Source: Flectonema sp. DT1601 (taxonomy: Eukaryota). From it: 64,000 nucleotides of DNA. The stretch spans positions 124,001-188,000 of the forward strand of contig OZ025780.1 in assembly GCA_964019425.1 (NCBI GenBank), read 5' to 3'. Positions 33,847 through 60,872 of this stretch are shown here, in pieces (position 1 is the stretch's first letter; each line of letters starts with the position of its first letter). A program made the translations under genes and the position numbers. The notes below the pieces were generated by a model, which searched no databases, was not told the origin of the DNA, and was given only the letters and a program-made list of their open reading frames with translations.

Positions 33847-36800
33847 TTACTTTCTCTTTCCTCATTACATTTGGTCTCCAATTCGTTCGACAGAAGAACA
33901 AACCTTTGATGGTAATTAAAGAGCGCCATTTCCGATAGGTCTGCTCTCTGAGTCAGATTTGCGAGCTCACGTTTCCTGTAATCTTCCACTAAGTCATATT
34001 GTCGAACTAGTGCAGAAAGAGAAGTCTTCGATTCATCGCGTTCTGCTGTTAACCGTTGAATTACTCCTTCCAGAAGTTCATATTCTTTTCTATCTTTTTC
34101 AATAATTAAAACAGGGGGCGCAGGAGGAAGTGAGGATGGATCCTGGTTGGTAGCTTTGATCTCAACAGGTAATCCATTTAGTAACTGCTTGTCTTTCTCG
34201 AGGGAGGCTGACATCGCATTAAAGTAAAATAAAAATAGAACATAAAAAATTCGTTCTTTCATTTGCTCTAATTCGTTTTCTAAAATCTGGCATTTCAAGG
34301 AAAGTTTCAGCCTTAATTTTCCTTCTTTTTTTTTGTACAAGGGGGTTTGAGAACCCATGTCAGATTGAGTTCTTATCACTATAGCGAAATCAGCAGGAAG
34401 TGTTTGCGATCCCGTTGACATGAGTTCAGGTGGGGGAGTCTGGAAAGAGATGGAAGAAATAGAAGAGAATGACAAGGAGAGTCCAGTGAGCTCATCCTCA
34501 TCTAACAAAACAGAAGGGGCCGGGGAGGAAGAACCATTGGCAATAAGTAGAATAGAAAGAGCCGATGCGTAACAAGTTTGCCAGATAAAACATTTCTCAA
34601 GCCACGATCTTTCAATGGTGAGCTTTTCGATCGTTTTCAGTTTTGTTACTTTGTGGATTTTGACTTCTTCCACAGGGAAGATTTCTTTACCATCTTTTAT
34701 AAAACTTGCAGTGGCAGGTTCTTCTTTAATGCTGCGCATTAGTGGTCTTGAATGCCACGTGGGGAGGTTCCTCGTCTGGAACAGAACATATGAGCACTGT
34801 CTGGCGATTCTGGTGCATTCACAAAATAAAGCTTTTGTTGGTGCTAAAGGTGAACCGATGTGACGTGTCCAGATGTTCAGCTGGTCCATGCAGATGTTTC
34901 CTCGTACGCCAACTTCAATAGTAAAAATGTTACAGTCGAAGCCATTAGCGATGATCGAGTCTCTTAGCTTTAGGTATTTCTTTTCCTTTAAGACATGAGA
35001 GGTTTCGAAACGATCTTCATTTGGACACGTCAGCTCCAGAATCAGTGCTCTTTTCGCAAAAAAAGAATAAATAAAAATGTCTGGTCTTAGAGAGGACGAG
35101 ACATGGCACACTTCAAGAGGAACAATTAGGCGGTTATCACCGACATCGTCGAGGATGACCCAATCATTCGCTAGTGAAAGTTCGCCTGTCTCTTTAGAAA
35201 TTCTTTCTAGGGGTTTATTTTCCCCTGTTTTTAAAAAAGTTTGAGAGGGAGGCGGGAGGTTTTCTTTTCTTTTGTTGGCTTTTATTATCAACTCTTCCAA
35301 GAAGATAACAATGCGTTTTAGAACGCTGTCGTGACGCCACGTGAACCTCCCTTGTGTTAAAGAGACAGGACAGCCTGTTAAGACATGCCTGAGGGTAGGA
35401 TTCACTTTGCCACACAAAACACAATTTTGGTCCACATTGGTGATGTTCCACCTCTTTAAATTATCTTGTGAGGGGAGGGTGTTTGTAACCGCTTTCAGTT
35501 GAAATGAGATATAGGCAGGATTTCCCTCCCTAAGTACCTTATTCCAGGTGAAGTCGTTTATCATACATTTAGACCACTCCTTCCATTGACCTTGGACTTG
35601 TAATTTATTCAAAGAGTTCAGTAGTTCATCTGTGGCTTCCACTTCAAAACGCTTAAGGAGATCGGGGCGAGTAGTACGTAGATCGCGCAATCGGTGACCA
35701 AGACCAGCTGATTGCTTCGCAAGAGAACGGTAAGAAAAAAACTTAATAAGGCGCTCCCACTCAGCAGAAGCTGAAAACTTTTTCGACCAGTTGGACGATT
35801 TCTCCATAATAACATTGTAGACACCGTGCATGTCAGAGTCCTGTGAGGATCTGAGGATGTCTAGTTTAATTGATTGCGCTTGTTTATATAGCGTCTCAAC
35901 TCTTTTGTGTCTGAGACCAACAGTGTTCTTTGAACCGGTAAAAAGGATGACTGTGTTCGCAGAGCGGACAAATCCCCACCATTTCTTCAAAAAAGGTTTA
36001 ATAATTTTGTCCATTTTTTTGGCAAAAGGGAGAGATAAGTCATGGATCATTAAACTCCATGTTAACCTTGACAATAACAAGTGTTGGACAGACCAAGCCT
36101 TCTGAGACCCATATAGTGGCATGGCGTCGACTTTTTTTAAAAAATTCCTGGTAAAAGTGGTCAGGCGCTCTCGCAATTTCTGTTCTTTGGCGTTCGGCTC
36201 AAACCAACGCCCGAGGTATTTGAACTCTCCAGCTTCCTGGAGATTCGTAATCGGAACATTGTTAATCTTCAGGTCCGGGTTAGCTGGTTTCCCTTGTACA
36301 AAGCTGTGGGCAATGCATTTCTGGGGTTTCGCTTTCATACCTCGAGACCAGGAAAGAAACTGTTCGAGCGACTTGATTAGCAATTTTGCCCCCGCCTTTG
36401 ATGACGTGGTAAGTTGTAAATCATCAGCAAAAGCTGCAACTAATAGTTGGAGGGATTTATTGTTAAACTCGTAGGCTTCCTGTTGATGAACTGCTAAGGA
36501 AAAGAGCAGTAGTTGGAATACCAAATTAAAAAGGGTTGGGGAGGAAACGCAGCCTTGAAAGACACCAACTTCAAAAGGGATAGTGGGCGTCAGGCCTTCT
36601 CCAACTCTGATTTGGACGCGCATGGAGGAATAATACCTTTTATAGAAACCGATTATTCTTTCGTGAATTCCGAAATATTTTAAAGCAAAGAAAATTAATT
36701 GATGTTTGACTGAGCCGAAAGCATCTGCCAAATCCACCCAGACAATTGTTAGGTTTTTCCGGAGAGCTTTCACTTCTTTAAAAATCTCTGAGGTGATCGT

Positions 36801-37280
36801 GGCATGTTCGATACACCCAGAGACACCTTTCCTAAAGCCTTTTTGAAAATTAAATTTAGAAAGAGTGTGGCTTGCGACGGCTTCCTGAATAACCGTATTA
36901 AAAATTTTCCCGTCGCAGTTGCCCACAGCTATCGGTCTCGTTTTCGAGATGTCTTTCCCATCGGAGTTGGGCTTTGGGAGCATTGTTACAAATGCTAAGC
37001 CCCAACTATCCGGATAGGCCTTGAGTTCGAAAATTCTCTTTAATACCTTGTAAAGTGCTTCCATAAAAGTTGGGACCTTTTTCCATACAACATAAGGTAT
37101 GCAATTGGGACCAGGGGCACATTTGTTTTTTTTCTTTGATAAGAGAATACCAAACTGTTCGAAGCTCGGGAACTGGATATCATCCATTGTCTTGTAGTCA
37201 GACTTAGGTAAAAAAGAGGGATGGGTGAAATCAGTTTTTTTTTTTTTCATTGTCACAATAATTGTTTTTAAAATGTTCAA
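33847..37280 (-). pseudogene. Copy A ORF2 (RT, CCHC knuckle, RLE, part of the extension), interrupted at 33847
   Basis: Matches the 1406 aa ORF up to ESKI. Confidence 0.9.
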
Positions 37281-38187
37281 TTATTTTTTCCTCTGGAATA
37301 TCAAGGGAGGGGGGTTGAGGATCTTCTTTTTGGAGTTCTTCTTTTATGGCAGTAAACGGATTTTGACGAAATTTATCTTGTAATTTTTTGAATAAATTTT
37401 TCTTTTCTAAATTCCGATACATTCGGAAAATCCTTTTCATTCTCGTTCTTGCCTCTTTCCATTTGACAGCGTTCTCTATAGAAGGCCCAGATTTGCGGAG
37501 CTCCTGTCTTAGCTGTTTCATTTCCAGACGACATTCAAGTTTTTCTTGGTCGAGGATGACCTCTTCCCTTGATTTCTGTTTGCGGGGTAAATTCCGCTTT
37601 GTTTCTTCAAAGAAACCGCTACATATTTGATAAACCGTTTTGAGTAGTTTATCAAGTTGGTCGGCAGGTTTTGAAGAGTTTTCTGTTTCGACGGTGAAAG
37701 TTTGAAGTTTTTCTGCAGCAGAAACGTCGATGTCCTTCCATTCAGTTCCAAAAGATCGGAATTTGAGACGAGACGGGTGTAACGGGGTAAAAGTGGGTGT
37801 TGTAGAGTTATAAGGAACGAAAGCTGTTTGTGAAGTTTTAAAATCTACAGATTCTCCTACAAAGGGAGGTTCCAGGTCTGAATTATTCCCTGTGAGGGGA
37901 GACAGAGGTGTACCTTTACATGTACCGTTAACACAGTGTTTCGCTCTCGTAGCGATACTTTTGAAAAGCTTACCACATTCTGGACAAGGTAAGTGGTAAC
38001 AATCTTTAACTTGGGAGTGGGTAGATGGGGGAAAACGTGACTTATAGTCCTTAAATTCCTTACTAAACTTACAGTTACGTCTAAAATGCGCAACTGGACC
38101 TTTGAGGTATGTCTCAAAACATAAAGGACATTTGGCTACTAAAGTTTTATCCCCATCCAGAGCCGATCTCGAAATAGCCTCTTGCAA
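37231..38187 (-). CDS. Copy A 5' ORF (two zinc-finger motifs, basic helical region)
   Basis: CPLC...H....C and CPECGKLF.......H.....C motifs. The ORF-track start is TTG. Confidence 0.8.
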   Translation of the reverse strand: MQEAISRSALDGDKTLVAKCPLCFETYLKGPVAHFRRNCKFSKEFKDYKSRFPPSTHSQVKDCYHLPCPECGKLFKSIATRAKHCVNGTCKGTPLSPLTGNNSDLEPPFVGESVDFKTSQTAFVPYNSTTPTFTPLHPSRLKFRSFGTEWKDIDVSAAEKLQTFTVETENSSKPADQLDKLLKTVYQICSGFFEETKRNLPRKQKSREEVILDQEKLECRLEMKQLRQELRKSGPSIENAVKWKEARTRMKRIFRMYRNLEKKNLFKKLQDKFRQNPFTAIKEELQKEDPQPPSLDIPEEKIIEHFKNNYCDNEKKKN

Positions 38188-39074
38188 AGCCTCGGGGGCT
38201 GGGTTGGCTGAGAGATGGTTGCCAGTATCTTTATGACACCGCCGGCCCGGTGTTTCTTTTTTTTTTTGTTGTGAAGTAGCAATAATAAAAAAAAAAAAAA
38301 ATAGAAAAGAGAATGGCTCAGAAACAATATCGATGAGTTAAGATCTTTTTTTTTAAACTATTCCTTTTTTTTTAATTTCGGGCAGCTAACCCTAGAGTTT
38401 TTTTTTGGTAAATACTGTTTAAAGGAAAACGAGCTACGCTCTAAAACAGAAAAATCGGAGTAACTACTTGTTTATAATATATATTTTGATAAATAATGTG
38501 GTTGGCAAATGAATGCCGAAGAGGCAACTTGAGAAAAGCAATTGGATGAGAAGAAACATTGGGTCTTATAAAGCAAAGGAGATAGAGGGGCCTAAAAAGA
38601 CCGCAGAGTGGATAGCTCCACAAAAGGCTGAATTTCGATAAAGTGGGAAGTAACGGACTGGGAGCTTTTGGCTCCTGCCCTATTCCCGATGTAAACTTTC
38701 TTTTTATTTTTATTTTTTTTTTTTAACAGGCCCAAAGGGCGACAATGATGGTTGCTGACCAAGGAATAATATTCAAATGAATTTTCGTTTCAAAGAAACG
38801 AACAGAATTGAGAGAGAGGCAGAGAAAAAAAAAAAAAAAAAAAAGAAAGAATAGAAAAAAAAAAATATGAAGAGGAAATAATCAAACATGAAAAAAAAAA
38901 AAAAACAAAATATAAATAAAAAACGTTGTATGAAAAAGGAAAAAAAGAAAAAAAAAGACCAGAAAAGGAAAGAGAAAATGAAAAGGTATAATATTATTGT
39001 GGGGATATGAGGATAGCAGGGAGATGCTCTTTTTTTTTTTTTTTTTTTTTTTTATTTATTATTTAAAAAAAGGA

Positions 39075-39166
39075 AACAATCAGTTTAGCGTCTCGATCAG
39101 GACGGAAAATAGAAATTAATCGACATAGTCGATCGATAGAAAAAAAACAATGATAACATTGTTTAT

Positions 39167-39199
<33 letters not shown>

Positions 39200-39453
39200 C
39201 TTTTAATTATTTTAAAGAAAAAACAATCAGTTTAGCGTCTTGACCAGGACGGAAAATAGAAAGTAATCGACATAGTCGATCGATAAAAAAAAAACAATGA
39301 TAACATTGTTTATTCCTTTTTTTTTTTTTTTTTTTTTATTCTTTTCATTTATTTTTAAAGAAAAAACAATCAGTTTAGCGTCCTGACCAGGACGGAAAAT
39401 TGAAAGTGATCGACATAGTCGATCGATAAAAAAACAATGATAACATTGATTAA

Positions 39454-39486
<33 letters not shown>

Positions 39487-42330
39487 TTTTAATTATTTTT
39501 TAAAGAAAAAACAATCAGTTTAGCGTCTTGACCAGGACGGAAAATAGAAAGTGATCGACATAGTCGATCGATAAAAAACAATGATAACATTGTTTATTCT
39601 TTTTTTTTTTTTTTTTTTTTTTTTAATCCTTTTTATTATTTTAAAGAAAAAACAATCAGTTTAGCGTCTTGACCAGGACGGAAAATAGAAAGTGATCGAC
39701 ATAGTCGATCGATAAAAAACAATGATAACATTGTTTATTCTTTTTTTTTTTTTTTTTTTTTTTTTTAATCCTTTTTATTATTTTAACCCTCTAATAAGAG
39801 GCTAAAAACCCTGTTTTTGAGAAAAATCGAAAAAATTGACAAAGGAGAAAAGGGGTGTGGGGAAAAATACAAAAAAATTACAGGGTGAAAGACACCCCCC
39901 CGCGCATTGAAAAAAAACTGAGGTCAGCCCGCAAGGGGGCCAAAATAACTTGAGAAAATGCAACAACAGCCTAAAAAAACACTGTTACTTAGGACCCCCG
40001 GGTTCGCTTTGATTTTGGCAATGTTGTAGGAGTAGAGTGCTTCCGTTTCATGTTTTTCGGTGGGATATGATTGTGTGTAGCAAAGGTATGGTTGTTGCAA
40101 ACAGGGGCTGAATACTTGTCAATATTTTCGTGATATTGTTCGAAGCAGGGATCCATGCATAAGAAAACCTCGCTTTTTGAACAAGAAATCGATGACGTTA
40201 CTTTTTTTGAGAACAAACCCGTGAACTGCAGTCCCCAAAAATACCGAATTTTCGTAGGTAGTGACATTTTGTGTGAGTTTGGTGTGTTCCGTGAACAATA
40301 AGTTGAGAACATAGCCTCTTTTTGAACTGAGCATATGTCCCGACGTCTTTTTCAGACTTCTTTTGGAGGGTGAAAACATTGAAGATAGAAATCTCTAACA
40401 AGTAGTGAAAGACTTTCAGGGTCCAGCGTTTTGTCATCAGAGTTCTTCTTGCCTTCCCCCTGATACCGTCTACGAGGTCAACACCACCCATCAGTTTGTT
40501 GTACTGATGGATCTGTACCAGTAAGTCGATAGTCACTTTTTGATAGATTTCCTTATTTTAGTCCATCACGTGGCTGTCTCATAATTCTCCTCGAGAGGCA
40601 ATGTGCTGAAGACATGTACTTCTTTTGGATTGTCCCTGAATTTATGTGATGCACATTGTGCTAGGACTGAAAGTACGAGGCAGAGAACTTCTCCACCCGT
40701 CCCTGCGCCTCCGCCTTATTAATCTCGGACCATTTGGGAACTATTGTTTCCCAAAAGCTGCGGATTTTGTAGAGCTTGTCAGTAGGTACGGGGTTGGTGA
40801 CAGTGTAAAACTTTAGATTGGTTAAAAAACAATGATAACATTGTTTATTCTTTTTTTTTTGTTTTTTTTTTTTTTATTCTTTTTATTTATTTTTTAAAGA
40901 AAAAACAATCAGTTTAGCGTCTTGACCAGGACGGAAAATAGAAATTAGTCGACAAAGTCGATCGATAACAAAACAATGATAACATTGTTTATTCTTTTTT
41001 TTTTTTTTTTTTTTTTTTATTCTTTTTATTTATTTTTTAAAGAAAAAACAATCAGTTTAGCGTCCTGACCAGGACGGAAAATAGAAAGTAATCGACATAG
41101 TCGATCGATAAAAAAAAACAATGATAACATTGTTTAATCTTTTTTTTTTTTTTTTTTTTTATTCTTTTTATTTATTTAGAAAAAACAATCAGTTTAGCGT
41201 CTTGACCAGGACGGAAAATAGAAATTAGTCGACAAAGTCGATCGATAAAAAAACAATGATAACATTGTTTATTCTTTTTTTTTTTTTTTTTTTTAAATTC
41301 TTTTTATTTATTTTTTAAGAAAAAAAAGAAAATAGAAATTAGTCGACAAAGTCGAACGATAAAAAAACAATGATAACATTGTTTATTCTTTTTTTTATTT
41401 TTTTTTTTTATATTCTTTTTTATTAATTTTGAAAAAAAAAAACAATCAGTTTAGCGTCTTGACCAGGACGGAAAATAGAAAGTAATCGACATAGTCGATC
41501 GATAAAAAAACAATGATAACATTGTTTATTCTTTTTTTTTTTTTTTTTTTTTTTTAAATTCTTTTTATTTATTTTTTAAGAAAAAAAAACGGAAAATAGA
41601 AATTAGTCGACAAAGTCGAACGATAAAAAAACAATGATAACATTGTTTATTCTTTTTTTTATTTTTATTTTTTTATATTCTTTTTTATTAATTTTGAAAA
41701 AAAAAAAACAATCAGTTTAGCGTCTTGACCAGGACGGAAAATAGAAAGTAATCGACATAGTCGATCGATAAAAAAACAATGATAACATTGTTTATTCTTT
41801 TTTTTTTTTTTTTTTTTTTAAATTCTTTTTATTTATTTTTTAAGAAAAAAAAACGGAAAATAGAAATTAGTCGACAAAGTCGAACGATAAAAAAACAATG
41901 ATAACATTGTTTATTCTTTTTTTTATTTTTATTTTTTTATATTCTTTTTTATTAATTTTGAAAAAAAAAAAACAATCAGTTTAGCGTCTTGACCAGGACG
42001 GAAAATAGAAAGTAATCGACATAGTCGATCGATAAAAAAACAATGATAACATTGTTTATTCTTTTTTTTTTTTTTTTTTTTTTAAATTCTTTTTATTTAT
42101 TTTTTAAGAAAAAAAAACGGAAAATAGAAATTAGTCGACAAAGTCGAACGATAAAAAAACAATGATAACATTGTTTATTCTTTTTTTTATTTTTTTTTTT
42201 TTATATTCTTTTTTATTAATTTTGGGAAAAAAAAAAACAATCAGTTTAGCGTCTTGACCAGGACAGAAAATAGAAAGTAATCGACATAGTCGATCGATAA
42301 AAATACAATGATAACATTGTTTAATCTTTT
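39075..42330 (-). repeat. Hairpin satellite array in copy B, interrupted by a piggyBac fragment
   Basis: Same units as 16565-19410. Confidence 0.95.
39787..40821 (-). mobile_element. piggyBac 3' fragment (degraded transposase C-terminus and right end)
   Basis: TTAA|CCCT terminus. Frameshifted YNKLMGGVDLVD...KRWTLKVFHYLLEISIFN and Cys-rich CSKSEVFLCMDPCFEQYH. Confidence 0.85.
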
Positions 42331-43884
42331 ATAATTTTTTATTTTTTTTTGTTTTAAAAAAAAAAAAAAAAACAAGCGGAATTGATCATAATGGGTGGTA
42401 GGGGTTGTTATAACTTCGTTTGAAAATTCTTCTTTTTTGATTTCTTTTTTTTTTTCTTTTTACAGGAGTTAAGATCACTGTCAGGAGACAACACATTAAC
42501 AAGAGCAGCAAGCAGAGTTGACACTATCAATTCAAATTTGAAATACCGGGAATTAATTTACAAGGAGGTATCTCAAGTGACTTGGTATCTCTAGCGTGTC
42601 GGTATCTCTGGAGTGCTGGTATCTCGTATGTGCGTTGGTATCTCATGAGTGATGGTATCTCTTGTGCATTAGAGAAACGAAAAAGAATGTCATGACCATG
42701 ACGGAAGAATTGAGGAATTGAGTTAACATGTTCAATTTAACTTATTTAAACTTTTTTTTTTTTTTAACAGACCGTAACTATTTGAAAATAAAATGTAGAT
42801 GGGAAACAGTGAAAAGTAAAATGGATGATAAAATTAAATGAGAAATATGACATAACAGACCAGATAGAGAGTATTAAAAGGAAATTGAAAAGGAAAAGAG
42901 AAACTAGGTTAACACTTATTTAAAATTAAGACCGGTTAGTCAGTTTAAGGTCTTGACTAGGACCAACAAAAAAGAAAGAAAAAAAATTAACGATCAAGCT
43001 GAGCTGATCTTGTTTTTATTACAAATAGGGGAGCGGGAGGGATGGAAGGAATAGAGGAAAAAAAAAGAAAAGGTTGATCATTTGGATCTGATCGTCGAGA
43101 AGAAGAAATTATTTTAAAGGTTGATCGGTATAGCCGATCGTTGAGAAAAATAAACAGATATAAATACAATCAGTTTAAATTAAAAAAAGAAAAAAAGATT
43201 AACGATCAAGCTGAGCTGATCTTGTTTTTATTTAAAATTAGGGGAGCGGGAGGGATGGAAGGAATAAAGGAAAAAAAAAAAAAGGTCGATCAATTGGAAC
43301 TGATCGTCGAGAAGAAGAAAACAATTATTTATAAAAAAAAAAATGGTCGGTATAGCCGATCGTTGAGAAAAGAACAGATATAAATACAATCGGTTTTGGT
43401 GATCGACGAGTGGAGCGATCACTTGACAAGAAGGAAAAAGAAAGGACCGATTAATTGGGGCTTTGATTGTATTCCCAAGGCATGTTTTTTTTTTTTTTTT
43501 TATTATTCATTTACATTATTATTATTTTTTTTTTTTTTTAAATTAATAATCACATTTTGTTCAAAAATATTTCATATTAGAGTAAAAGAAAAAGAAAAAA
43601 AGAAATAAGAGAAAAAAAAAAAAAAAAACCATTGCTGGCCCCCTCACCACTCATAGAGGATGAGGAGGCCAGTAAGGCGTCACTCAAATCTATGCCAAGC
43701 CTTGGGAACTTGGATTGGGGTTTAGACCATTTATAATTAACAATTAACAATTAACCTGATTAACGTTATGATCTGACGGACATAAACATATCGATAAAAT
43801 AATACAAACAAAAACGAACAATAAATAATAAATAAGCTAAAAAACTAAATAAACAAAGTGATGTGAAAGTAAGGAAAAAGAGAA

Positions 43885-46800
43885 TTACAAGGGGGTGGAG
43901 TCACCGTGAACGTCATCAGCAGAACATCTCCTTCGATTGTAACGATATCTTGATGGAGGGGTTCGTTTTTTCAGAGTTGAACGCTCAGACTTTCTCGGCG
44001 GAGTTTCATTTTCCTCATGTTCTTCTGTGTCTGGCGGACTCAAACCTTCTGCCCATGAAGCTAATTGGAACTTCAGGGCCGCAATTTGAGACCGTGCCAA
44101 GGCGAGTTGAGCATTTAAATCGCTCGCCAGTCCCGTTAACATCATGGATTGCTCAAGCTGCTCTGCGTGAGTTGTACACCGTTGGTGATTCAGCTCCGAG
44201 AGGCGAAGTTGGGCATCCAGAAGTTGTTCTGAGAGCTCTGCCGCTTTCTCGTTTGTTTCGAGAGAGTCATCTACTGCTCGACAGTAATTCTCGAGTAAGT
44301 CAATCCTACCCTCGGACCATTGTCTCGCAATAGGTGTATTCTCTTTAACGGAGATAACGTGACTCTCTTGTCGTAAAATCTTGGTCGGCGTGCGGTCGAG
44401 AGCTTCACTCTGCGGCATTGTCGGAGGAATTGAGGCTAGAGGACAAAGAGGGGTGATATAATTAAGGGTAGGGATAAGGGGTTTAATAAGAGGAGTAAAA
44501 AGACTACTCGTAGTTGTAAAGAGCGAGAGGTAGTTCTTTGCTATCTTCATCATAGCAACAGATTCATACAGAACGGGGGTTCGGGGGGAAACTTGTTGAC
44601 TAAAGTGGGTCATACGGGGACGCGCGGCACGCAAACTCTCGACCTCCTGTTGAGTATAGAAAAGTCTTATTTTACTTTCTCTTTCCTCATTACATTTGGT
44701 CTCCAATTCGTTCGACAGAAGAACAAACCTTTGATGGTAATTAAAGAGCGCCATTTCCGATAGGTCTGCTCTCTGAGTCAGATTTGCGAGCTCACGTTTC
44801 CTGTAATCTTCCACTAAGTCATATTGTCGAACTAGTGCAGAAAGAGAAGTCTTCGATTCATCGCGTTCTGCTGTTAACCGTTGAATTACTCCTTCCAGAA
44901 GTTCATATTCTTTTCTATCTTTTTCAATAATTAAAACAGGGGGCGCAGGAGGAAGTGAGGATGGATCCTGGTTGGTAGCTTTGATCTCAACAGGTAATCC
45001 ATTTAGTAACTGCTTGTCTTTCTCGAGGGAGGCTGACATCGCATTAAAGTAAAATAAAAATAGAACATAAAAAATTCGTTCTTTCATTTGCTCTAATTCG
45101 TTTTCTAAAATCTGGCATTTCAAGGAAAGTTTCAGCCTTAATTTTCCTTCTTTTTTTTTGTACAAGGGGGTTTGAGAACCCATGTCAGATTGAGTTCTTA
45201 TCACTATAGCGAAATCAGCAGGAAGTGTTTGCGATCCCGTTGACATGAGTTCAGGTGGGGGAGTCTGGAAAGAGATGGAAGAAATAGAAGAGAATGACAA
45301 GGAGAGTCCAGTGAGCTCATCCTCATCTAACAAAACAGAAGGGGCCGGGGAGGAAGAACCATTGGCAATAAGTAGAATAGAAAGAGCCGATGCGTAACAA
45401 GTTTGCCAGATAAAACATTTCTCAAGCCACGATCTTTCAATGGTGAGCTTTTCGATCGTTTTCAGTTTTGTTACTTTGTGGATTTTGACTTCTTCCACAG
45501 GGAAGATTTCTTTACCATCTTTTATAAAACTTGCAGTGGCAGGTTCTTCTTTAATGCTGCGCATTAGTGGTCTTGAATGCCACGTGGGGAGGTTCCTCGT
45601 CTGGAACAGAACATATGAGCACTGTCTGGCGATTCTGGTGCATTCACAAAATAAAGCTTTTGTTGGTGCTAAAGGTGAACCGATGTGACGTGTCCAGATG
45701 TTCAGCTGGTCCATGCAGATGTTTCCTCGTACGCCAACTTCAATAGTAAAAATGTTACAGTCGAAGCCATTAGCGATGATCGAGTCTCTTAGCTTTAGGT
45801 ATTTCTTTTCCTTTAAGACATGAGAGGTTTCGAAACGATCTTCATTTGGACACGTCAGCTCCAGAATCAGTGCTCTTTTCGCAAAAAAAGAATAAATAAA
45901 AATGTCTGGTCTTAGAGAGGACGAGACATGGCACACTTCAAGAGGAACAATTAGGCGGTTATCACCGACATCGTCGAGGATGACCCAATCATTCGCTAGT
46001 GAAAGTTCGCCTGTCTCTTTAGAAATTCTTTCTAGGGGTTTATTTTCCCCTGTTTTTAAAAAAGTTTGAGAGGGAGGCGGGAGGTTTTCTTTTCTTTTGT
46101 TGGCTTTTATTATCAACTCTTCCAAGAAGATAACAATGCGTTTTAGAACGCTGTCGTGACGCCACGTGAACCTCCCTTGTGTTAAAGAGACAGGACAGCC
46201 TGTTAAGACATGCCTGAGGGTAGGATTCACTTTGCCACACAAAACACAATTTTGGTCCACATTGGTGATGTTCCACCTCTTTAAATTATCTTGTGAGGGG
46301 AGGGTGTTTGTAACCGCTTTCAGTTGAAATGAGATATAGGCAGGATTTCCCTCCCTAAGTACCTTATTCCAGGTGAAGTCGTTTATCATACATTTAGACC
46401 ACTCCTTCCATTGACCTTGGACTTGTAATTTATTCAAAGAGTTCAGTAGTTCATCTGTGGCTTCCACTTCAAAACGCTTAAGGAGATCGGGGCGAGTAGT
46501 ACGTAGATCGCGCAATCGGTGACCAAGACCAGCTGATTGCTTCGCAAGAGAACGGTAAGAAAAAAACTTAATAAGGCGCTCCCACTCAGCAGAAGCTGAA
46601 AACTTTTTCGACCAGTTGGACGATTTCTCCATAATAACATTGTAGACACCGTGCATGTCAGAGTCCTGTGAGGATCTGAGGATGTCTAGTTTAATTGATT
46701 GCGCTTGTTTATATAGCGTCTCAACTCTTTTGTGTCTGAGACCAACAGTGTTCTTTGAACCGGTAAAAAGGATGACTGTGTTCGCAGAGCGGACAAATCC

Positions 46801-48105
46801 CCACCATTTCTTCAAAAAAGGTTTAATAATTTTGTCCATTTTTTTGGCAAAAGGGAGAGATAAGTCATGGATCATTAAACTCCATGTTAACCTTGACAAT
46901 AACAAGTGTTGGACAGACCAAGCCTTCTGAGACCCATATAGTGGCATGGCGTCGACTTTTTTTAAAAAATTCCTGGTAAAAGTGGTCAGGCGCTCTCGCA
47001 ATTTCTGTTCTTTGGCGTTCGGCTCAAACCAACGCCCGAGGTATTTGAACTCTCCAGCTTCCTGGAGATTCGTAATCGGAACATTGTTAATCTTCAGGTC
47101 CGGGTTAGCTGGTTTCCCTTGTACAAAGCTGTGGGCAATGCATTTCTGGGGTTTCGCTTTCATACCTCGAGACCAGGAAAGAAACTGTTCGAGCGACTTG
47201 ATTAGCAATTTTGCCCCCGCCTTTGATGACGTGGTAAGTTGTAAATCATCAGCAAAAGCTGCAACTAATAGTTGGAGGGATTTATTGTTAAACTCGTAGG
47301 CTTCCTGTTGATGAACTGCTAAGGAAAAGAGCAGTAGTTGGAATACCAAATTAAAAAGGGTTGGGGAGGAAACGCAGCCTTGAAAGACACCAACTTCAAA
47401 AGGGATAGTGGGCGTCAGGCCTTCTCCAACTCTGATTTGGACGCGCATGGAGGAATAATACCTTTTATAGAAACCGATTATTCTTTCGTGAATTCCGAAA
47501 TATTTTAAAGCAAAGAAAATTAATTGATGTTTGACTGAGCCGAAAGCATCTGCCAAATCCACCCAGACAATTGTTAGGTTTTTCCGGAGAGCTTTCACTT
47601 CTTTAAAAATCTCTGAGGTGATCGTGGCATGTTCGATACACCCAGAGACACCTTTCCTAAAGCCTTTTTGAAAATTAAATTTAGAAAGAGTGTGGCTTGC
47701 GACGGCTTCCTGAATAACCGTATTAAAAATTTTCCCGTCGCAGTTGCCCACAGCTATCGGTCTCGTTTTCGAGATGTCTTTCCCATCGGAGTTGGGCTTT
47801 GGGAGCATTGTTACAAATGCTAAGCCCCAACTATCCGGATAGGCCTTGAGTTCGAAAATTCTCTTTAATACCTTGTAAAGTGCTTCCATAAAAGTTGGGA
47901 CCTTTTTCCATACAACATAAGGTATGCAATTGGGACCAGGGGCACATTTGTTTTTTTTCTTTGATAAGAGAATACCAAACTGTTCGAAGCTCGGGAACTG
48001 GATATCATCCATTGTCTTGTAGTCAGACTTAGGTAAAAAAGAGGGATGGGTGAAATCAGTTTTTTTTTTTTTCATTGTCACAATAATTGTTTTTAAAATG
48101 TTCAA
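43885..48105 (-). CDS. Retrotransposon ORF2: reverse transcriptase + CCHC knuckle + restriction-like endonuclease + ~560 aa extension
   Basis: RT motifs APGPNCIP, RPIAV, QKGF, DLADAFGSVKH, GVFQGCVSSP, FADDL, FKYLG. Knuckle CVLC...HVLTGC. RLE motifs WRHDSVL, RPDI...ELTCP.E...K.KKY and EVGVRG. Confidence 0.95.
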   Translation of the reverse strand: MNILKTIIVTMKKKKTDFTHPSFLPKSDYKTMDDIQFPSFEQFGILLSKKKNKCAPGPNCIPYVVWKKVPTFMEALYKVLKRIFELKAYPDSWGLAFVTMLPKPNSDGKDISKTRPIAVGNCDGKIFNTVIQEAVASHTLSKFNFQKGFRKGVSGCIEHATITSEIFKEVKALRKNLTIVWVDLADAFGSVKHQLIFFALKYFGIHERIIGFYKRYYSSMRVQIRVGEGLTPTIPFEVGVFQGCVSSPTLFNLVFQLLLFSLAVHQQEAYEFNNKSLQLLVAAFADDLQLTTSSKAGAKLLIKSLEQFLSWSRGMKAKPQKCIAHSFVQGKPANPDLKINNVPITNLQEAGEFKYLGRWFEPNAKEQKLRERLTTFTRNFLKKVDAMPLYGSQKAWSVQHLLLSRLTWSLMIHDLSLPFAKKMDKIIKPFLKKWWGFVRSANTVILFTGSKNTVGLRHKRVETLYKQAQSIKLDILRSSQDSDMHGVYNVIMEKSSNWSKKFSASAEWERLIKFFSYRSLAKQSAGLGHRLRDLRTTRPDLLKRFEVEATDELLNSLNKLQVQGQWKEWSKCMINDFTWNKVLREGNPAYISFQLKAVTNTLPSQDNLKRWNITNVDQNCVLCGKVNPTLRHVLTGCPVSLTQGRFTWRHDSVLKRIVIFLEELIIKANKRKENLPPPSQTFLKTGENKPLERISKETGELSLANDWVILDDVGDNRLIVPLEVCHVSSSLRPDIFIYSFFAKRALILELTCPNEDRFETSHVLKEKKYLKLRDSIIANGFDCNIFTIEVGVRGNICMDQLNIWTRHIGSPLAPTKALFCECTRIARQCSYVLFQTRNLPTWHSRPLMRSIKEEPATASFIKDGKEIFPVEEVKIHKVTKLKTIEKLTIERSWLEKCFIWQTCYASALSILLIANGSSSPAPSVLLDEDELTGLSLSFSSISSISFQTPPPELMSTGSQTLPADFAIVIRTQSDMGSQTPLYKKKEGKLRLKLSLKCQILENELEQMKERIFYVLFLFYFNAMSASLEKDKQLLNGLPVEIKATNQDPSSLPPAPPVLIIEKDRKEYELLEGVIQRLTAERDESKTSLSALVRQYDLVEDYRKRELANLTQRADLSEMALFNYHQRFVLLSNELETKCNEERESKIRLFYTQQEVESLRAARPRMTHFSQQVSPRTPVLYESVAMMKIAKNYLSLFTTTSSLFTPLIKPLIPTLNYITPLCPLASIPPTMPQSEALDRTPTKILRQESHVISVKENTPIARQWSEGRIDLLENYCRAVDDSLETNEKAAELSEQLLDAQLRLSELNHQRCTTHAEQLEQSMMLTGLASDLNAQLALARSQIAALKFQLASWAEGLSPPDTEEHEENETPPRKSERSTLKKRTPPSRYRYNRRRCSADDVHGDSTPL

Positions 48106-49012
48106 TTATTTTTTCCTCTGGAATATCAAGGGAGGGGGGTTGAGGATCTTCTTTTTGGAGTTCTTCTTTTATGGCAGTAAACGGATTTTGACGAAATTTA
48201 TCTTGTAATTTTTTGAATAAATTTTTCTTTTCTAAATTCCGATACATTCGGAAAATCCTTTTCATTCTCGTTCTTGCCTCTTTCCATTTGACAGCGTTCT
48301 CTATAGAAGGCCCAGATTTGCGGAGCTCCTGTCTTAGCTGTTTCATTTCCAGACGACATTCAAGTTTTTCTTGGTCGAGGATGACCTCTTCCCTTGATTT
48401 CTGTTTGCGGGGTAAATTCCGCTTTGTTTCTTCAAAGAAACCGCTACATATTTGATAAACCGTTTTGAGTAGTTTATCAAGTTGGTCGGCAGGTTTTGAA
48501 GAGTTTTCTGTTTCGACGGTGAAAGTTTGAAGTTTTTCTGCAGCAGAAACGTCGATGTCCTTCCATTCAGTTCCAAAAGATCGGAATTTGAGACGAGACG
48601 GGTGTAACGGGGTAAAAGTGGGTGTTGTAGAGTTATAAGGAACGAAAGCTGTTTGTGAAGTTTTAAAATCTACAGATTCTCCTACAAAGGGAGGTTCCAG
48701 GTCTGAATTATTCCCTGTGAGGGGAGACAGAGGTGTACCTTTACATGTACCGTTAACACAGTGTTTCGCTCTCGTAGCGATACTTTTGAAAAGCTTACCA
48801 CATTCTGGACAAGGTAAGTGGTAACAATCTTTAACTTGGGAGTGGGTAGATGGGGGAAAACGTGACTTATAGTCCTTAAATTCCTTACTAAACTTACAGT
48901 TACGTCTAAAATGCGCAACTGGACCTTTGAGGTATGTCTCAAAACATAAAGGACATTTGGCTACTAAAGTTTTATCCCCATCCAGAGCCGATCTCGAAAT
49001 AGCCTCTTGCAA
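48056..49012 (-). CDS. Copy B 5' ORF (zinc fingers)
   Basis: Same translation as the copy A 5' ORF. Confidence 0.8.
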   Translation of the reverse strand: MQEAISRSALDGDKTLVAKCPLCFETYLKGPVAHFRRNCKFSKEFKDYKSRFPPSTHSQVKDCYHLPCPECGKLFKSIATRAKHCVNGTCKGTPLSPLTGNNSDLEPPFVGESVDFKTSQTAFVPYNSTTPTFTPLHPSRLKFRSFGTEWKDIDVSAAEKLQTFTVETENSSKPADQLDKLLKTVYQICSGFFEETKRNLPRKQKSREEVILDQEKLECRLEMKQLRQELRKSGPSIENAVKWKEARTRMKRIFRMYRNLEKKNLFKKLQDKFRQNPFTAIKEELQKEDPQPPSLDIPEEKIIEHFKNNYCDNEKKKN

Positions 49013-49894
49013 AGCCTCGGGGGCTGGGTTGGCTGAGAGATGGTTGCCAGTATCTTTATGACACCGCCGGCCCGGTGTTTCTTTTTTTTTTTGTTGTGAA
49101 GTAGCAATAATAAAAAAAAAAAAAAATAGAAAAGAGAATGGCTCAGAAACAATATCGATGAGTTAAGATCTTTTTTTTAAACTATTCCTTTTTTTTTAAT
49201 TTCGGGCAGCTAACCCTAGAGTTTTTTTTTGGTAAATACTGTTTAAAGGAAAACGAGCTACGCTCTAAAACAGAAAAATCGGAGTAACTACTTGTTTATA
49301 ATATATATTTTGATAAATAATGTGGTTGGCAAATGAATGCCGAAGAGGCAACTTGAGAAAAGCAATTGGATGAGAAGAAACATTGGGTCTTATAAAGCAA
49401 AGGAGATAGAGGGGCCTAAAAAGACCGCAGAGTGGATAGCTCCACAAAAGGCTGAATTTCGATAAAGTGGGAAGTAACGGACTGGGAGCTTTTGGCTCCT
49501 GCCCTATTCCCGATGTAAACTTTCTTTTTATTTTTATTTTTTTTTTTTAACAGGCCCAAAGGGCGACAATGATGGTTGCTGACCAAGGAATAATATTCAA
49601 ATGAATTTTCGTTTCAAAGAAACGAACAGAATTGAGAGAGAGGCAGAGAAAAAAAAAAAAAAAAAAAAGAAAGAATAGAAAAAAAAAAATATGAAGAGGA
49701 AATAATCAAACATGAAAAAAAAAAAAAAACAAAATATAAATAAAAAACGTTGTATGAAAAAGGAAAAAAAGAAAAAAAAAGACCAGAAAAGGAAAGAGAA
49801 AATGAAAAGGTATAATATTATTGTGGGGATATGAGGATAGCAGGGAGATGCTCTTTTTTTTTTTTTTTTTTTTTTTTATTTATTATTTAAAAAA

Positions 49895-49990
49895 AGGAAA
49901 CAATCAGTTTAGCGTCTCGATCAGGACGGAAAATAGAAATTAATCGACATAGTCGATCGATAGAAAAAAAACAATGATAACATTGTTTAT

Positions 49991-50023
<33 letters not shown>

Positions 50024-50277
50024 CTTTTAATTATTTTAAAGAAAAAACAATCAGTTTAGCGTCTTGACCAGGACGGAAAATAGAAAGTAATCGACATAGT
50101 CGATCGATAAAAAAAAAACAATGATAACATTGTTTATTCCTTTTTTTTTTTTTTTTTTTTTATTCTTTTCATTTATTTTTAAAGAAAAAACAATCAGTTT
50201 AGCGTCCTGACCAGGACGGAAAATTGAAAGTGATCGACATAGTCGATCGATAAAAAAACAATGATAACATTGATTAA

Positions 50278-50310
<33 letters not shown>

Positions 50311-52890
50311 TTTTAATTATTTTTTAAAGAAAAAACAATCAGTTTAGCGTCTTGACCAGGACGGAAAATAGAAAGTGATCGACATAGTCGATCGATAAAA
50401 AACAATGATAACATTGTTTATTCTTTTTTTTTTTTTTTTTTTTTTTTTAATCCTTTTTATTATTTTAAAGAAAAAACAATCAGTTTAGCGTCTTGACCAG
50501 GACGGAAAATAGAAAGTGATCGACATAGTCGATCGATAAAAAACAATGATAACATTGTTTATTCTTTTTTTTTTTTTTTTTTTTTTTTTTAATCCTTTTT
50601 ATTATTTTAACCCTCTAATAAGAGGCTAAAAACCCTGTTTTTGAGAAAAATCGAAAAAATTGACAAAGGAGAAAAGGGGTGTGGGGAAAAATACAAAAAA
50701 ATTACAGGGTGAAAGACACCCCCCCGCGCATTGAAAAAAAACTGAGGTCAGCCCGCAAGGGGGCCAAAATAACTTGAGAAAATGCAACAACAGCCTAAAA
50801 AAACACTGTTACTTAGGACCCCCGGGTTCGCTTTGATTTTGGCAATGTTGTAGGAGTAGAGTGCTTCCGTTTCATGTTTTTCGGTGGGATATGATTGTGT
50901 GTAGCAAAGGTATGGTTGTTGCAAACAGGGGCTGAATACTTGTCAATATTTTCGTGATATTGTTCGAAGCAGGGATCCATGCATAAGAAAACCTCGCTTT
51001 TTGAACAAGAAATCGATGACGTTACTTTTTTTGAGAACAAACCCGTGAACTGCAGTCCCCAAAAATACCGAATTTTCGTAGGTAGTGACATTTTGTGTGA
51101 GTTTGGTGTGTTCCGTGAACAATAAGTTGAGAACATAGCCTCTTTTTGAACTGAGCATATGTCCCGACGTCTTTTTCAGACTTCTTTTGGAGGGTGAAAA
51201 CATTGAAGATAGAAATCTCTAACAAGTAGTGAAAGACTTTCAGGGTCCAGCGTTTTGTCATCAGAGTTCTTCTTGCCTTCCCCCTGATACCGTCTACGAG
51301 GTCAACACCACCCATCAGTTTGTTGTACTGATGGATCTGTACCAGTAAGTCGATAGTCACTTTTTGATAGATTTCCTTATTTTAGTCCATCACGTGGCTG
51401 TCTCATAATTCTCCTCGAGAGGCAATGTGCTGAAGACATGTACTTCTTTTGGATTGTCCCTGAATTTATGTGATGCACATTGTGCTAGGACTGAAAGTAC
51501 GAGGCAGAGAACTTCTCCACCCGTCCCTGCGCCTCCGCCTTATTAATCTTGGACCATTTGGGAACTATTGTTTCCCAAAAGCTGCGGATTTTGTAGAGCT
51601 TGTCAGTAGGTACGGGGTTGGTGACAGTGTAAAACTTTAGATTGGTTAAAAAACAATGATAACATTGTTTATTCTTTTTTTTTTGTTTTTTTTTTTTTTA
51701 TTCTTTTTATTTATTTTTTAAAGAAAAAACAATCAGTTTAGCGTCTTGACCAGGACGGAAAATAGAAATTAGTCGACAAAGTCGATCGATAACAAAACAA
51801 TGATAACATTGTTTATTCTTTTTTTTTTTTTTTTTTTTTTTTATTCTTTTTATTTATTTTTTAAAGAAAAAACAATCAGTTTAGCGTCCTGACCAGGACG
51901 GAAAATAGAAAGTAATCGACATAGTCGATCGATAAAAAAAAACAATGATAACATTGTTTAATCTTTTTTTTTTTTTTTTTTTTTATTCTTTTTATTTATT
52001 TAGAAAAAACAATCAGTTTAGCGTCTTGACCAGGACGGAAAATAGAAATTAGTCGACAAAGTCGATCGATAAAAAAACAATGATAACATTGTTTATTCTT
52101 TTTTTTTTTTTTTTTTTTAAATTCTTTTTATTTATTTTTTAAGAAAAAAAAGAAAATAGAAATTAGTCGACAAAGTCGAACGATAAAAAAACAATGATAA
52201 CATTGTTTATTCTTTTTTTTATTTTTTTTTTTTATATTCTTTTTTATTAATTTTGAAAAAAAAAAACAATCAGTTTAGCGTCTTGACCAGGACGGAAAAT
52301 AGAAAGTAATCGACATAGTCGATCGATAAAAAAACAATGATAACATTGTTTATTCTTTTTTTTTTTTTTTTTTTTTTTTAAATTCTTTTTATTTATTTTT
52401 TAAGAAAAAAAAACGGAAAATAGAAATTAGTCGACAAAGTCGAACGATAAAAAAACAATGATAACATTGTTTATTCTTTTTTTTATTTTTATTTTTTTAT
52501 ATTCTTTTTTATTAATTTTGAAAAAAAAAAAACAATCAGTTTAGCGTCTTGACCAGGACGGAAAATAGAAAGTAATCGACATAGTCGATCGATAAAAAAA
52601 CAATGATAACATTGTTTATTCTTTTTTTTTTTTTTTTTTTTTTAAATTCTTTTTATTTATTTTTTAAGAAAAAAAAACGGAAAATAGAAATTAGTCGACA
52701 AAGTCGAACGATAAAAAAACAATGATAACATTGTTTATTCTTTTTTTTATTTTTTTTTTTTTATATTCTTTTTTATTAATTTTGGGAAAAAAAAAAACAA
52801 TCAGTTTAGCGTCTTGACCAGGACAGAAAATAGAAAGTAATCGACATAGTCGATCGATAAAAATACAATGATAACATTGTTTAATCTTTT
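49895..52890 (-). repeat. Hairpin satellite array in copy C, interrupted by a piggyBac fragment
   Basis: Same units as the other arrays. Confidence 0.95.
50611..51645 (-). mobile_element. piggyBac 3' fragment (duplicate of 39787-40821)
   Basis: Same junctions and near-identical sequence. Confidence 0.85.
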
Positions 52891-54444
52891 ATAATTTTTT
52901 ATTTTTTTTTGTTTTAAAAAAAAAAAAAAAAACAAGCGGAATTGATCATAATGGGTGGTAGGGGTTGTTATAACTTCGTTTGAAAATTCTTCTTTTTTGA
53001 TTTCTTTTTTTTTTTCTTTTTACAGGAGTTAAGATCACTGTCAGGAGACAACACATTAACAAGAGCAGCAAGCAGAGTTGACACTATCAATTCAAATTTG
53101 AAATACCGGGAATTAATTTACAAGGAGGTATCTCAAGTGACTTGGTATCTCTAGCGTGTCGGTATCTCTGGAGTGCTGGTATCTCGTATGTGCGTTGGTA
53201 TCTCATGAGTGATGGTATCTCTTGTGCATTAGAGAAACGAAAAAGAATGTCATGACCATGACGGAAGAATTGAGGAATTGAGTTAACATGTTCAATTTAA
53301 CTTATTTAAACTTTTTTTTTTTTTTAACAGACCGTAACTATTTGAAAATAAAATGTAGATGGGAAACAGTGAAAAGTAAAATGGATGATAAAATTAAATG
53401 AGAAATATGACATAACAGACCAGATAGAGAGTATTAAAAGGAAATTGAAAAGGAAAAGAGAAACTAGGTTAACACTTATTTAAAATTAAGACCGGTTAGT
53501 CAGTTTAAGGTCTTGACTAGGACCAACAAAAAAGAAAGAAAAAAAATTAACGATCAAGCTGAGCTGATCTTGTTTTTATTACAAATAGGGGAGCGGGAGG
53601 GATGGAAGGAATAGAGGAAAAAAAAAGAAAAGGTTGATCATTTGGATCTGATCGTCGAGAAGAAGAAATTATTTTAAAGGTTGATCGGTATAGCCGATCG
53701 TTGAGAAAAATAAACAGATATAAATACAATCAGTTTAAATTAAAAAAAGAAAAAAAGATTAACGATCAAGCTGAGCTGATCTTGTTTTTATTTAAAATTA
53801 GGGGAGCGGGAGGGATGGAAGGAATAAAGGAAAAAAAAAAAAAGGTCGATCAATTGGAACTGATCGTCGAGAAGAAGAAAACAATTATTTATAAAAAAAA
53901 AAATGGTCGGTATAGCCGATCGTTGAGAAAAGAACAGATATAAATACAATCGGTTTTGGTGATCGACGAGTGGAGCGATCACTTGACAAGAAGGAAAAAG
54001 AAAGGACCGATTAATTGGGGCTTTGATTGTATTCCCAAGGCATGTTTTTTTTTTTTTTTTTATTATTCATTTACATTATTATTATTTTTTTTTTTTTTTA
54101 AATTAATAATCACATTTTGTTCAAAAATATTTCATATTAGAGTAAAAGAAAAAGAAAAAAAGAAATAAGAGAAAAAAAAAAAAAAAAACCATTGCTGGCC
54201 CCCTCACCACTCATAGAGGATGAGGAGGCCAGTAAGGCGTCACTCAAATCTATGCCAAGCCTTGGGAACTTGGATTGGGGTTTAGACCATTTATAATTAA
54301 CAATTAACAATTAACCTGATTAACGTTATGATCTGACGGACATAAACATATCGATAAAATAATACAAACAAAAACGAACAATAAATAATAAATAAGCTAA
54401 AAAACTAAATAAACAAAGTGATGTGAAAGTAAGGAAAAAGAGAA

Positions 54445-58665: not shown

Positions 58666-59572
58666 TTATTTTTTCCTCTGGAATATCAAGGGAGGGGGGT
58701 TGAGGATCTTCTTTTTGGAGTTCTTCTTTTATGGCAGTAAACGGATTTTGACGAAATTTATCTTGTAATTTTTTGAATAAATTTTTCTTTTCTAAATTCC
58801 GATACATTCGGAAAATCCTTTTCATTCTCGTTCTTGCCTCTTTCCATTTGACAGCGTTCTCTATAGAAGGCCCAGATTTGCGGAGCTCCTGTCTTAGCTG
58901 TTTCATTTCCAGACGACATTCAAGTTTTTCTTGGTCGAGGATGACCTCTTCCCTTGATTTCTGTTTGCGGGGTAAATTCCGCTTTGTTTCTTCAAAGAAA
59001 CCGCTACATATTTGATAAACCGTTTTGAGTAGTTTATCAAGTTGGTCGGCAGGTTTTGAAGAGTTTTCTGTTTCGACGGTGAAAGTTTGAAGTTTTTCTG
59101 CAGCAGAAACGTCGATGTCCTTCCATTCAGTTCCAAAAGATCGGAATTTGAGACGAGACGGGTGTAACGGGGTAAAAGTGGGTGTTGTAGAGTTATAAGG
59201 AACGAAAGCTGTTTGTGAAGTTTTAAAATCTACAGATTCTCCTACAAAGGGAGGTTCCAGGTCTGAATTATTCCCTGTGAGGGGAGACAGAGGTGTACCT
59301 TTACATGTACCGTTAACACAGTGTTTCGCTCTCGTAGCGATACTTTTGAAAAGCTTACCACATTCTGGACAAGGTAAGTGGTAACAATCTTTAACTTGGG
59401 AGTGGGTAGATGGGGGAAAACGTGACTTATAGTCCTTAAATTCCTTACTAAACTTACAGTTACGTCTAAAATGCGCAACTGGACCTTTGAGGTATGTCTC
59501 AAAACATAAAGGACATTTGGCTACTAAAGTTTTATCCCCATCCAGAGCCGATCTCGAAATAGCCTCTTGCAA
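58616..59572 (-). CDS. Copy C 5' ORF (zinc fingers)
   Basis: Same translation as the other copies. Confidence 0.8.
   Translation of the reverse strand: MQEAISRSALDGDKTLVAKCPLCFETYLKGPVAHFRRNCKFSKEFKDYKSRFPPSTHSQVKDCYHLPCPECGKLFKSIATRAKHCVNGTCKGTPLSPLTGNNSDLEPPFVGESVDFKTSQTAFVPYNSTTPTFTPLHPSRLKFRSFGTEWKDIDVSAAEKLQTFTVETENSSKPADQLDKLLKTVYQICSGFFEETKRNLPRKQKSREEVILDQEKLECRLEMKQLRQELRKSGPSIENAVKWKEARTRMKRIFRMYRNLEKKNLFKKLQDKFRQNPFTAIKEELQKEDPQPPSLDIPEEKIIEHFKNNYCDNEKKKN

Positions 59573-60552: not shown

Positions 60553-60585
<33 letters not shown>

Positions 60586-60839: not shown

Positions 60840-60872
<33 letters not shown>

Follow-up and report, generated by a model that had tools for sequence, protein, structure and literature searches.

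Results

The Element and Its Core Domains

The stretch of DNA analysed here, called the window in the following, comprises 64,000 nucleotides of Flectonema sp. DT1601 (assembly GCA_964019425.1, contig OZ025780.1, positions 124,001 to 188,000, forward strand) and contains several copies of an R2-like retrotransposon that lacks long terminal repeats (non-LTR). In copy E the main open reading frame (ORF) encodes 1406 amino acids (aa), and it continues for 557 residues beyond the restriction-like endonuclease (RLE). An earlier note on this DNA had proposed that this tail is an undescribed accessory module, serving oligomerisation, tethering to membrane or cytoskeleton, or assembly of a ribonucleoprotein (RNP) on a hairpin array. 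The tail is very probably a real accessory module maintained by selection; some of the functions proposed for it have to be revised. The features of copy E, all on the complementary strand (-), are:

43885-48105 (-): main ORF, 1406 aa, with reverse transcriptase (RT), CCHC zinc knuckle, RLE and tail
48056-49012 (-): upstream frame of 318 aa with Cys/His zinc-finger-like motifs, seen by eye
47035-47802 (-): RT domain, aa 102-357 (Pfam RVT_1, E 5.4e-26)
46186-46383 (-): CCHC zinc knuckle / zf-RVT, aa 575-640 (Pfam PF13966, E 5.4e-7)
45559-46188 (-): RLE fold, aa ~640-849 (alignment of 30 proteins and AlphaFold2 (AF2) model)
43885-45558 (-): post-RLE tail, aa 850-1406 and stop codon (557 residues)

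The closest matches of the RT protein in the PDB are R2 proteins (9nl2, E 1.8e-32), and CVLCGKVNPTLRHVLTGC is present in the zinc knuckle region between RT and endonuclease. In the RLE, the columns D712, P733, D734, E749, L750, T751, K765, Y769, E789 and G794 are invariant among the 30 aligned proteins, so that the catalytic residues of the PD-(D/E)xK type (D712, P733-D734, E749, K765) are kept. The end of this domain was set at aa ~849, since the predicted local distance difference test (pLDDT) of AF2 is mostly at least 90 up to there and below 50 thereafter. The motif QTRNLPTW occupies aa 835-842 and ends at nucleotide 45580; 564 residues follow it, in agreement with the open frame of about 1.7 kb noticed earlier. 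The order RT-CCHC-RLE places the element in the R2/NeSL/Utopia-type group of RLE-encoding non-LTR elements. A search of the whole window against Rfam at gathering thresholds gave no matches; no rRNA, HDV-like ribozyme or R2 3'UTR element was recognised. Since the window holds no rRNA gene and the element copies are flanked by a 143-bp satellite, the element does not qualify, strictly speaking, as an R2 specific for rDNA.

No Pfam domain was found in the upstream 318-aa frame. A run of 13 A (48060-48072, (-)) interrupts the frame between it and the main ORF in copies D, E and F, and this could be a real inactivating length change or an error of homopolymer assembly. The protein P0016, representative of a cluster of 235 members, is one continuous frame across this junction; intact relatives would therefore be single-ORF elements, as are R2-type elements.

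The Tail as Coding Sequence

When aa 846-1405 were used as query in a word-indexed search of 5.8e9 proteins, a single cluster was returned, P0001, with 47 members, 15 of which were listed. Among the listed members, P0005, P0006 and P0012 (subfamily 2), from three different contigs, each carry the entire tail in one frame and fused to the RLE, and the tails of subfamily 2 align end to end with that of the window. Nine other listed members are fragments which start inside the tail and end at the same C-terminus, and P0001, P0004 and P0013 break off around aa 1309-1317.

For comparison with neutral decay, the window DNA for aa 1041-1406 was mutated at random to an amino-acid identity of about 52%. 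Not one of 4000 simulated sequences was free of stop codons, the mean being 9.6 stops per sequence. Because both tail variants are open and have the same end point, the frame appears to have been maintained by selection; an open frame of about 560 codons is far beyond chance.

Contigs from four sequencing runs contained long pieces with 99-100% identity to the window, in which no joints or splices were seen; contigs of this kind cannot show expression. Retained introns were considered for the T-rich segments which encode the hydrophobic stretches. This was rejected for FYVLFLFYF, which lies inside a conserved helix and has no usable donor site by eye. For the linker L3 (see below) an intron is unlikely, as both subfamilies keep it open at similar length.

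Structure of the Tail

AF2 was run on an alignment of nine tail sequences and gave a mean pLDDT of 59.5 with a predicted template modelling score (pTM) of 0.28. The model, together with the alignments, divides the tail as follows:

45361-45468 (-): H0, low-confidence hydrophobic helix, aa 880-915, containing YASALSILLIA (pLDDT ~50-58)
45157-45360 (-): L1, disordered Ser/Thr/Pro-rich linker, aa 916-983 (pLDDT ~30)
45001-45156 (-): H1, helix, aa 984-1035, containing the FYVLFLFYF insertion (pLDDT 61-67)
aa 1036-1060: L2, short linker (AF2)
44626-44925 (-): H2, helix of 100 residues, aa 1061-1160 (pLDDT 84-90)
44335-44625 (-): L3, disordered Pro/Ser/Thr-rich linker, aa 1161-1257 (AF2)
44050-44334 (-): H3, helix of 95 residues, aa 1258-1352 (pLDDT 82-93)
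43888-44049 (-): disordered C-terminus, aa 1353-1406, with conserved EENETP and KKRTPPS...RRR (AF2 and alignment)

The linkers have a combined Ser, Thr and Pro fraction of 0.33-0.41, which bears out their earlier description as Ser/Pro-rich. Proline is absent from H1 and H2 and occurs once in H3, at its first residue. The core of H1 (K.QILENELEQ.KE ... SASLEKD) is conserved in an alignment which includes a third lineage described below, and a stretch homologous to H0 can be recognised in the degraded copy A (about 8161-8369).

Two long heptad-like helices had been read from the sequence beforehand. The helices themselves were recovered by AF2 at aa 1061-1160 and 1258-1352, but heptad periodicity was found only in the last one: the hydrophobic power of H3 at period 3.5 was matched by 48 of 2000 shuffles for the window and by 4 of 2000 for subfamily 2, which is significant. 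In a similar way the "basic tail" is correct for the final part of the protein only, as the last 54 aa, in which RKSERSTLKKRTPPSRYRYNRRR is contained, have equal fractions of acidic and basic residues (0.20 each). A homodimer model with two copies of tail residues 135-510 reached a score of 0.07 against a mark of 0.32; it made no use of the alignment and the fold of the chain was uncertain, so that it is evidence neither way.

Q-Anchored Sites in Linker L1

The earlier note had pointed to repeated GSQT motifs, of the kind which can bind the dynein light chain LC8. The motif is present twice, and a TQS site lies between:

45226-45234 (-): SQT site 1, aa 958-960, aligned with ETQT/ETQS of the third lineage
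45187-45195 (-): TQS site, aa 971-973, opposite the third lineage's second ETQT in the alignment, with T and Q as invariant columns
45169-45177 (-): SQT site 2, aa 977-979, within a stretch of five residues absent from the third lineage

All three sites are situated where the pLDDT is about 30. Shuffling the tail 20000 times produced a pair of [ST]Q[TV] sites within 35 aa in 1.4% of cases. When four sequences including the third lineage were aligned, two sites had invariant T and Q, while the surrounding disordered stretch was poorly conserved. The idea of an LC8 motif gains support from this, because a lineage of only 33-46% identity keeps T-Q at both aligned sites (ETQT). The most conserved block of L1 is a different one, DEDELTGLSLSF (aa ~929-942, window 45280-45320), which is present in three of four lineage representatives and may be another short linear motif.

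Sister Lineages and Mosaic Structure

The identity between the window protein and subfamily 2 changes in steps. A first zone, aa 601-915, is 100% identical; aa 916-1034 follow with 87-97% and aa 1035-1406 with 23-77% (about 50% overall), the drops lying near aa ~915 and ~1035 (window 44978-45360, aa ~915-1042). One low-depth contig from the sequencing runs diverges from the window at 44978, which is the breakpoint of subfamily 2. In the distal zone H2 is 43-60% and H3 50-77% identical, and the linkers 23-43%; the predicted helices are thus better conserved than the linkers.

The third lineage (P0085, P0086, P0087) has a proximal tail which is 33-46% identical to that of the window, and a distal part which is nearly the same as in subfamily 2 (alignment judged by eye). 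Three of the four possible combinations of proximal and distal parts therefore exist, which indicates that the tail was reshuffled between lineages by recombination. The identity steps, together with P0086, where a divergent proximal part is joined to a distal part like that of subfamily 2, point to recombination between element lineages inside the coding region. From these comparisons the tail module appears to have been exchanged as blocks.

Search for Known Domains

With Pfam, nothing above threshold was found in the tail, the best candidate, PPP1R21_C, having E values of 0.058-0.2. A phmmer search against 1.84e9 representative proteins gave 18 matches, all of them fragments of the same element family with identities of 43-100%. 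A profile of nine tails had no match with E<0.1 among PDB sequences (best E 0.13), and Foldseek with the tail model returned nothing at E<=0.001, its one match having E 3.8. The neighbours in the ESM Atlas were only generic eukaryotic coiled-coil proteins; as the recognition score was low (1572), they are weak leads. By these searches the tail is without detectable relative outside this element family. A match to an already described domain, which had been named beforehand as an outcome speaking against an undescribed module, was not obtained with Foldseek or profiles; together with the coding constraint, this upholds the description as an undescribed accessory module.

Post-RLE Regions of Other Elements

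A search with aa 400-900 yielded 53 proteins, two from this family and 51 distant (<=36% identity); their extents were taken from BLASTP end points. About 34 of the 51 distant relatives end within ~25 aa of the RLE, which makes a tail of 557 residues unusual. In 10 of the 51, however, a complete UCH/USP domain (PF00443) follows about 40-100 residues after the RLE (P0026, P0028, P0029, P0041-P0044, P0047, P0049, P0054; in P0028 at 1060-1343, E 2.7e-35), and P0030 has a DarT-like ssDNA ADP-ribosyltransferase domain (PF14487, E 4e-25) in the same position. The general statement that R2-group proteins end soon after the RLE therefore holds for the larger part of the distant relatives and fails for these. 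The USP and DarT-like domains indicate that the post-RLE position is a recurrent site of domain accretion in the group. P0024 and P0040 have uncharacterised extensions after the RLE; Peptidase_C48 is among the precomputed Pfam domains of P0059. None of the tails of these relatives, whether USP, DarT-like or other, resembles that of the window.

Statements that carry a PMC identifier, in this and the following sections, are based on excerpts of the cited papers. There, the canonical R2 architecture ends with CCHC and RLE (PMC13580325, PMC4640811). The present element is like the R2/NeSL/Utopia elements (R2: 9nl2, 9nl3, 9dou, 8gh6) in the order RT, CCHC, RLE, in putative N-terminal Cys/His fingers and in having single-ORF relatives; it differs by its ~557 extra residues and by an identity of at most 36% to its nearest relatives outside the family. 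Accessory domains described in the excerpts of PMC4640811 are a Ulp1-like protease (NeSL/Utopia-1_TSP) and an RNase H (oomycete Utopia), both upstream of the RT. They share with the tail that a lineage-specific module has been added to a core protein, but they are enzymatic and N-terminal to the RT, whereas the tail is C-terminal, non-enzymatic and made up of helices and disorder. A loose parallel is a Gypsy LTR element with an orphan coiled-coil-like extension of ~250 aa after the integrase, for which protein-protein interaction was proposed (PMC7998251): both are orphan stretches past the last enzymatic domain of a retroelement polyprotein. The Gypsy extension has, according to the same excerpts, remote similarity to viral spike coiled coils, unlike the window tail, for which there was no such match. 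Searches of open-access text turned up no report of a coiled-coil tail, a USP domain or LC8 in connection with RLE elements.

Copies of the Element in the Window and Their Flanks

Copy relations were derived from tblastn and blastn within the window:

43885-49012: copy E
43538-43884 (-): 3' untranslated region of copy E; the match between C and E ends at 43538, beside an A-rich run
54445-59572: copy F, main ORF at 54445-58665
33844-38187: copy D, matching E only down to E coordinate 44669
19084-22161 (-): copy B, aa 1146-1406 and 3' flank, beginning at E coordinate 44667; its 5' part is copy D
22165-24913 (+): copy C, inverted and lacking its 5' part, extending from aa 607 to the 3' end, ORF part 22165-24564
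~8161-8738 (-): copy A, a degraded, frameshifted related element with an RLE region ~52-66% identical

The ORFs of E and F are identical (0 of 4221 nt differ). Since D stops at E coordinate 44669 and B begins at 44667, the two together make up a single copy, which is interrupted at E coordinate ~44668 by an insert of 11.7 kb (22162-33843). This insert contains the inverted copy C, a MULE transposase gene (25854-27626, MULE and SWIM) and a satellite block in inverted orientation. The copies E, F and D+B each lie in a segmentally duplicated unit of ~10.6 kb that includes the 143-bp satellite; the copies in the window are thus not independent.

Over 2403 nt, copies C and E have 14 differences, of which 12 are in the tail (six synonymous, six non-synonymous). 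The latter include a premature stop (CGA>TGA at 24172-24174, aa 1276) as well as P962L, A963T and I967M, which turn LPADFAIV into LLTDFAMV. The observation that most differences between E and copies B/C fall in the tail is therefore valid for C only, as B has no substitutions relative to E; LLTDFAMV belongs to copy C, as compared with E, F and D. In copy A, homology is restricted to the first ~116 residues of the tail (relaxed tblastn, E 3e-4) and is followed by a His-rich low-complexity run; apparent tail homology beyond these residues in the region ~7300-8370 was noise in the relaxed search. The 3' flank of copy B (20522-20925) includes ~404 bp without counterpart in E, at E coordinate 43434, which either B has gained or E has lost. 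Tandem repeats of 22 bp (GTGGCCCAAAATACCCCAAA-like) begin exactly where the 3' end of copy C lies (24914).

An AT-rich satellite with a unit of ~143 bp, higher-order repeats of 264 bp and short palindromes is located on both sides of the element copies (39030-39786, 41074-42350, 49854-50610, 51648-52910, 9400-10700, 16300-19450, 29100-33450 and 60400-62440). It may be the preferred target of the element. As the 3' end of the element is near 43538, beside the A-rich run, the satellite is flank and lies outside the element; the suggestion of RNP assembly on the hairpin array is not supported.

Other Contents of the Window and Source Samples

The window also contains the MULE transposase, a piggyBac-like fragment (ORF judged by eye), an RRM protein and a kinase. 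Long uninterrupted ORFs on the complementary strand encode a 4-RRM protein (5819-7339), a protein kinase (2821-3735) and an EF-hand protein (2-658); each is either a host gene or a retrogene in the neighbourhood of the repeat cluster. The stretch is present in ten sequencing runs under ten different organism labels, none of them listed as an RNA run. In the four examined, matching contigs were near-identical and of low depth beside much deeper unrelated contigs, and the source organism may be present in those samples only as a minor component.

Discussion

Possible Function of the Tail

On the basis of the structural model, the tail is predicted to act as a scaffold for self-association and for recruitment of partners of the R2-like protein; we consider this about as likely to be right as to be wrong. 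Two or more molecules of the protein would be held together by the long helices, of which the last shows heptad periodicity. The disordered linker just upstream of H1 may, through its conserved [ST]Q[ST] sites, bind the LC8 dimer hub and so reinforce the pairing, and the C-terminal basic cluster may have a role in nuclear import or RNA binding.

Several results weigh against this proposal. The AF2 model rests on nine sequences and has a pTM of 0.28. Period 3.5 was not significant in H2 (matched by 596 of 2000 shuffles for the window and 832 of 2000 for subfamily 2) or in H1 (1766 of 2000), and a cruder test of a/d occupancy for heptads was not significant for any helix. We infer translation of the tail from the conserved frame, and the 6 synonymous and 6 non-synonymous tail changes within the window are too few to show selection. 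The frame split at the 13-A run and the stop in the tail of copy C mean that the window copies may be dead. With respect to LC8, the window sites are SQT and TQS and not the canonical TQT; in the excerpts of PMC6607443, SQT is a weak anchor which stayed under the threshold of LC8Pred, and binding to LC8 failed for many TQT peptides.

Involvement of LC8 is plausible but appears doubtful. According to the excerpts of PMC7919418, LC8 dimers take up TQT-anchored strands from disordered regions and serve as hubs for dimerisation, and in Panoramix two LC8 sites are found directly upstream of short dimerising helices. The tail resembles this Drosophila protein in having two close Q-anchored sites in a disordered stretch directly upstream of helices. 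It is unlike Panoramix, which is a host silencing factor, in being part of a transposon protein, in its SQT/TQS anchors and in that binding is only putative. A more far-reaching version, which we regard as speculative and rather doubtful, would make the element enzyme a built-in client of the LC8 hub: by way of the two Q-anchored motifs with coiled coils behind them, LC8 would clamp two RT-endonuclease molecules, perhaps carrying them nucleus-ward, and the module would be swapped between lineages by recombination.

Alternative Explanations

LINE-1 encodes in a separate ORF the protein ORF1p, which forms a trimer and has a coiled coil, an RRM and a CTD domain. The tail has in common with it a long helical segment encoded by a non-LTR element; it differs by the lack of sequence similarity and by the fusion of the helices behind the endonuclease. 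It is conceivable, though unlikely, that the tail functions like ORF1p, so that the helices would multimerise and the basic C-terminus would bind and package the element's own RNA; the RNP function which ORF1 has in two-ORF LINEs would then be performed in a single-ORF element. This would agree with the long helices and the conserved cluster KKRTPPS...RRR, and with P0016, a single-ORF element without separate ORF1. However, no RNA-binding domain (RRM, CCHC) was found in the tail by Pfam, the last 54 aa hold acidic and basic residues in equal measure, and in the multimerisation step this explanation overlaps with the scaffold proposed above.

The distal tail could also be a captured fragment of a host coiled-coil gene, a passenger without part in transposition, whose frame is open because it originated recently or is under weak selection. 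The mosaic with its sharp identity steps at aa ~915 and ~1035, the N-terminal part of P0087, which is unlike the element upstream of the shared motifs, and the coiled-coil proteins among the Atlas neighbours are in favour of such an origin. Against it stand the lack of a host homologue among the 1.84e9 representatives searched with phmmer, the low recognition score of the Atlas neighbours, and the fact that all variants with a visible upstream part are attached to the element. Moreover, at ~50% divergence the two distal variants still have open frames with a common end, and helices are better conserved than linkers. We therefore think this origin improbable.

Just as little credit can be given to the suggestion that the tail is mainly an adaptor to a transport or hub system of the host, for example LC8-dynein, which would bring the protein to the nucleus or to target chromatin without self-association. 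The T-Q anchors conserved across lineages in a disordered linker and the basic cluster at the C-terminus would suit an adaptor, but in the excerpts of PMC7919418 and PMC6607443 LC8 is described mostly as a dimerisation hub and less as a cargo adaptor, and the motifs of the window are non-canonical (SQT/TQS).

Anchoring of the protein in a membrane by two hydrophobic stretches, as considered in the earlier note, is very improbable. Both stretches exist, YASALSILLIA at aa 903-913 and IFYVLFLFYF at aa 1011-1020. The usual cut-off for a membrane segment is a Kyte-Doolittle mean of at least 1.6 over 19 residues; the tail peaks at 1.40 (aa 897-915) and 1.14 (aa 1011-1029), below this limit and below the RT core, which itself reaches 1.60. 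In addition, FYVLFLFYF includes an insertion of six residues which is absent from the third lineage; the latter reads IITQLSAL within the same conserved helix, predicted to be continuous.

That the frame is open by chance or youth, with the region untranslated or a meaningless read-through, can practically be dismissed: the stop in copy C and the several members of the subfamily-2 cluster broken or truncated around aa 1309-1317 would fit, but the block-wise conservation, the alignment with subfamily 2 and the simulation without a single open sequence at the observed divergence refute it, unless the subfamily-2 proteins were mis-assembled.

Implications

R2-type proteins are under close study as tools for site-specific gene insertion, and the architecture described in the excerpts of PMC13580325 stops at the endonuclease. 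A selected orphan module in the present element, together with the USP and DarT-like domains in relatives, marks the C-terminus as a tolerated and used site for extra functions. The block-wise mosaic shows recombination between element lineages inside the coding region. If the element enzyme should be a client of LC8, it would be the first one encoded by a transposon, and would represent a new route to the two-subunit state which cuts both DNA strands. More generally, if the tail drives pairing or recruitment of a host hub, it would bear on the coordination of two-strand cleavage and on nuclear entry.

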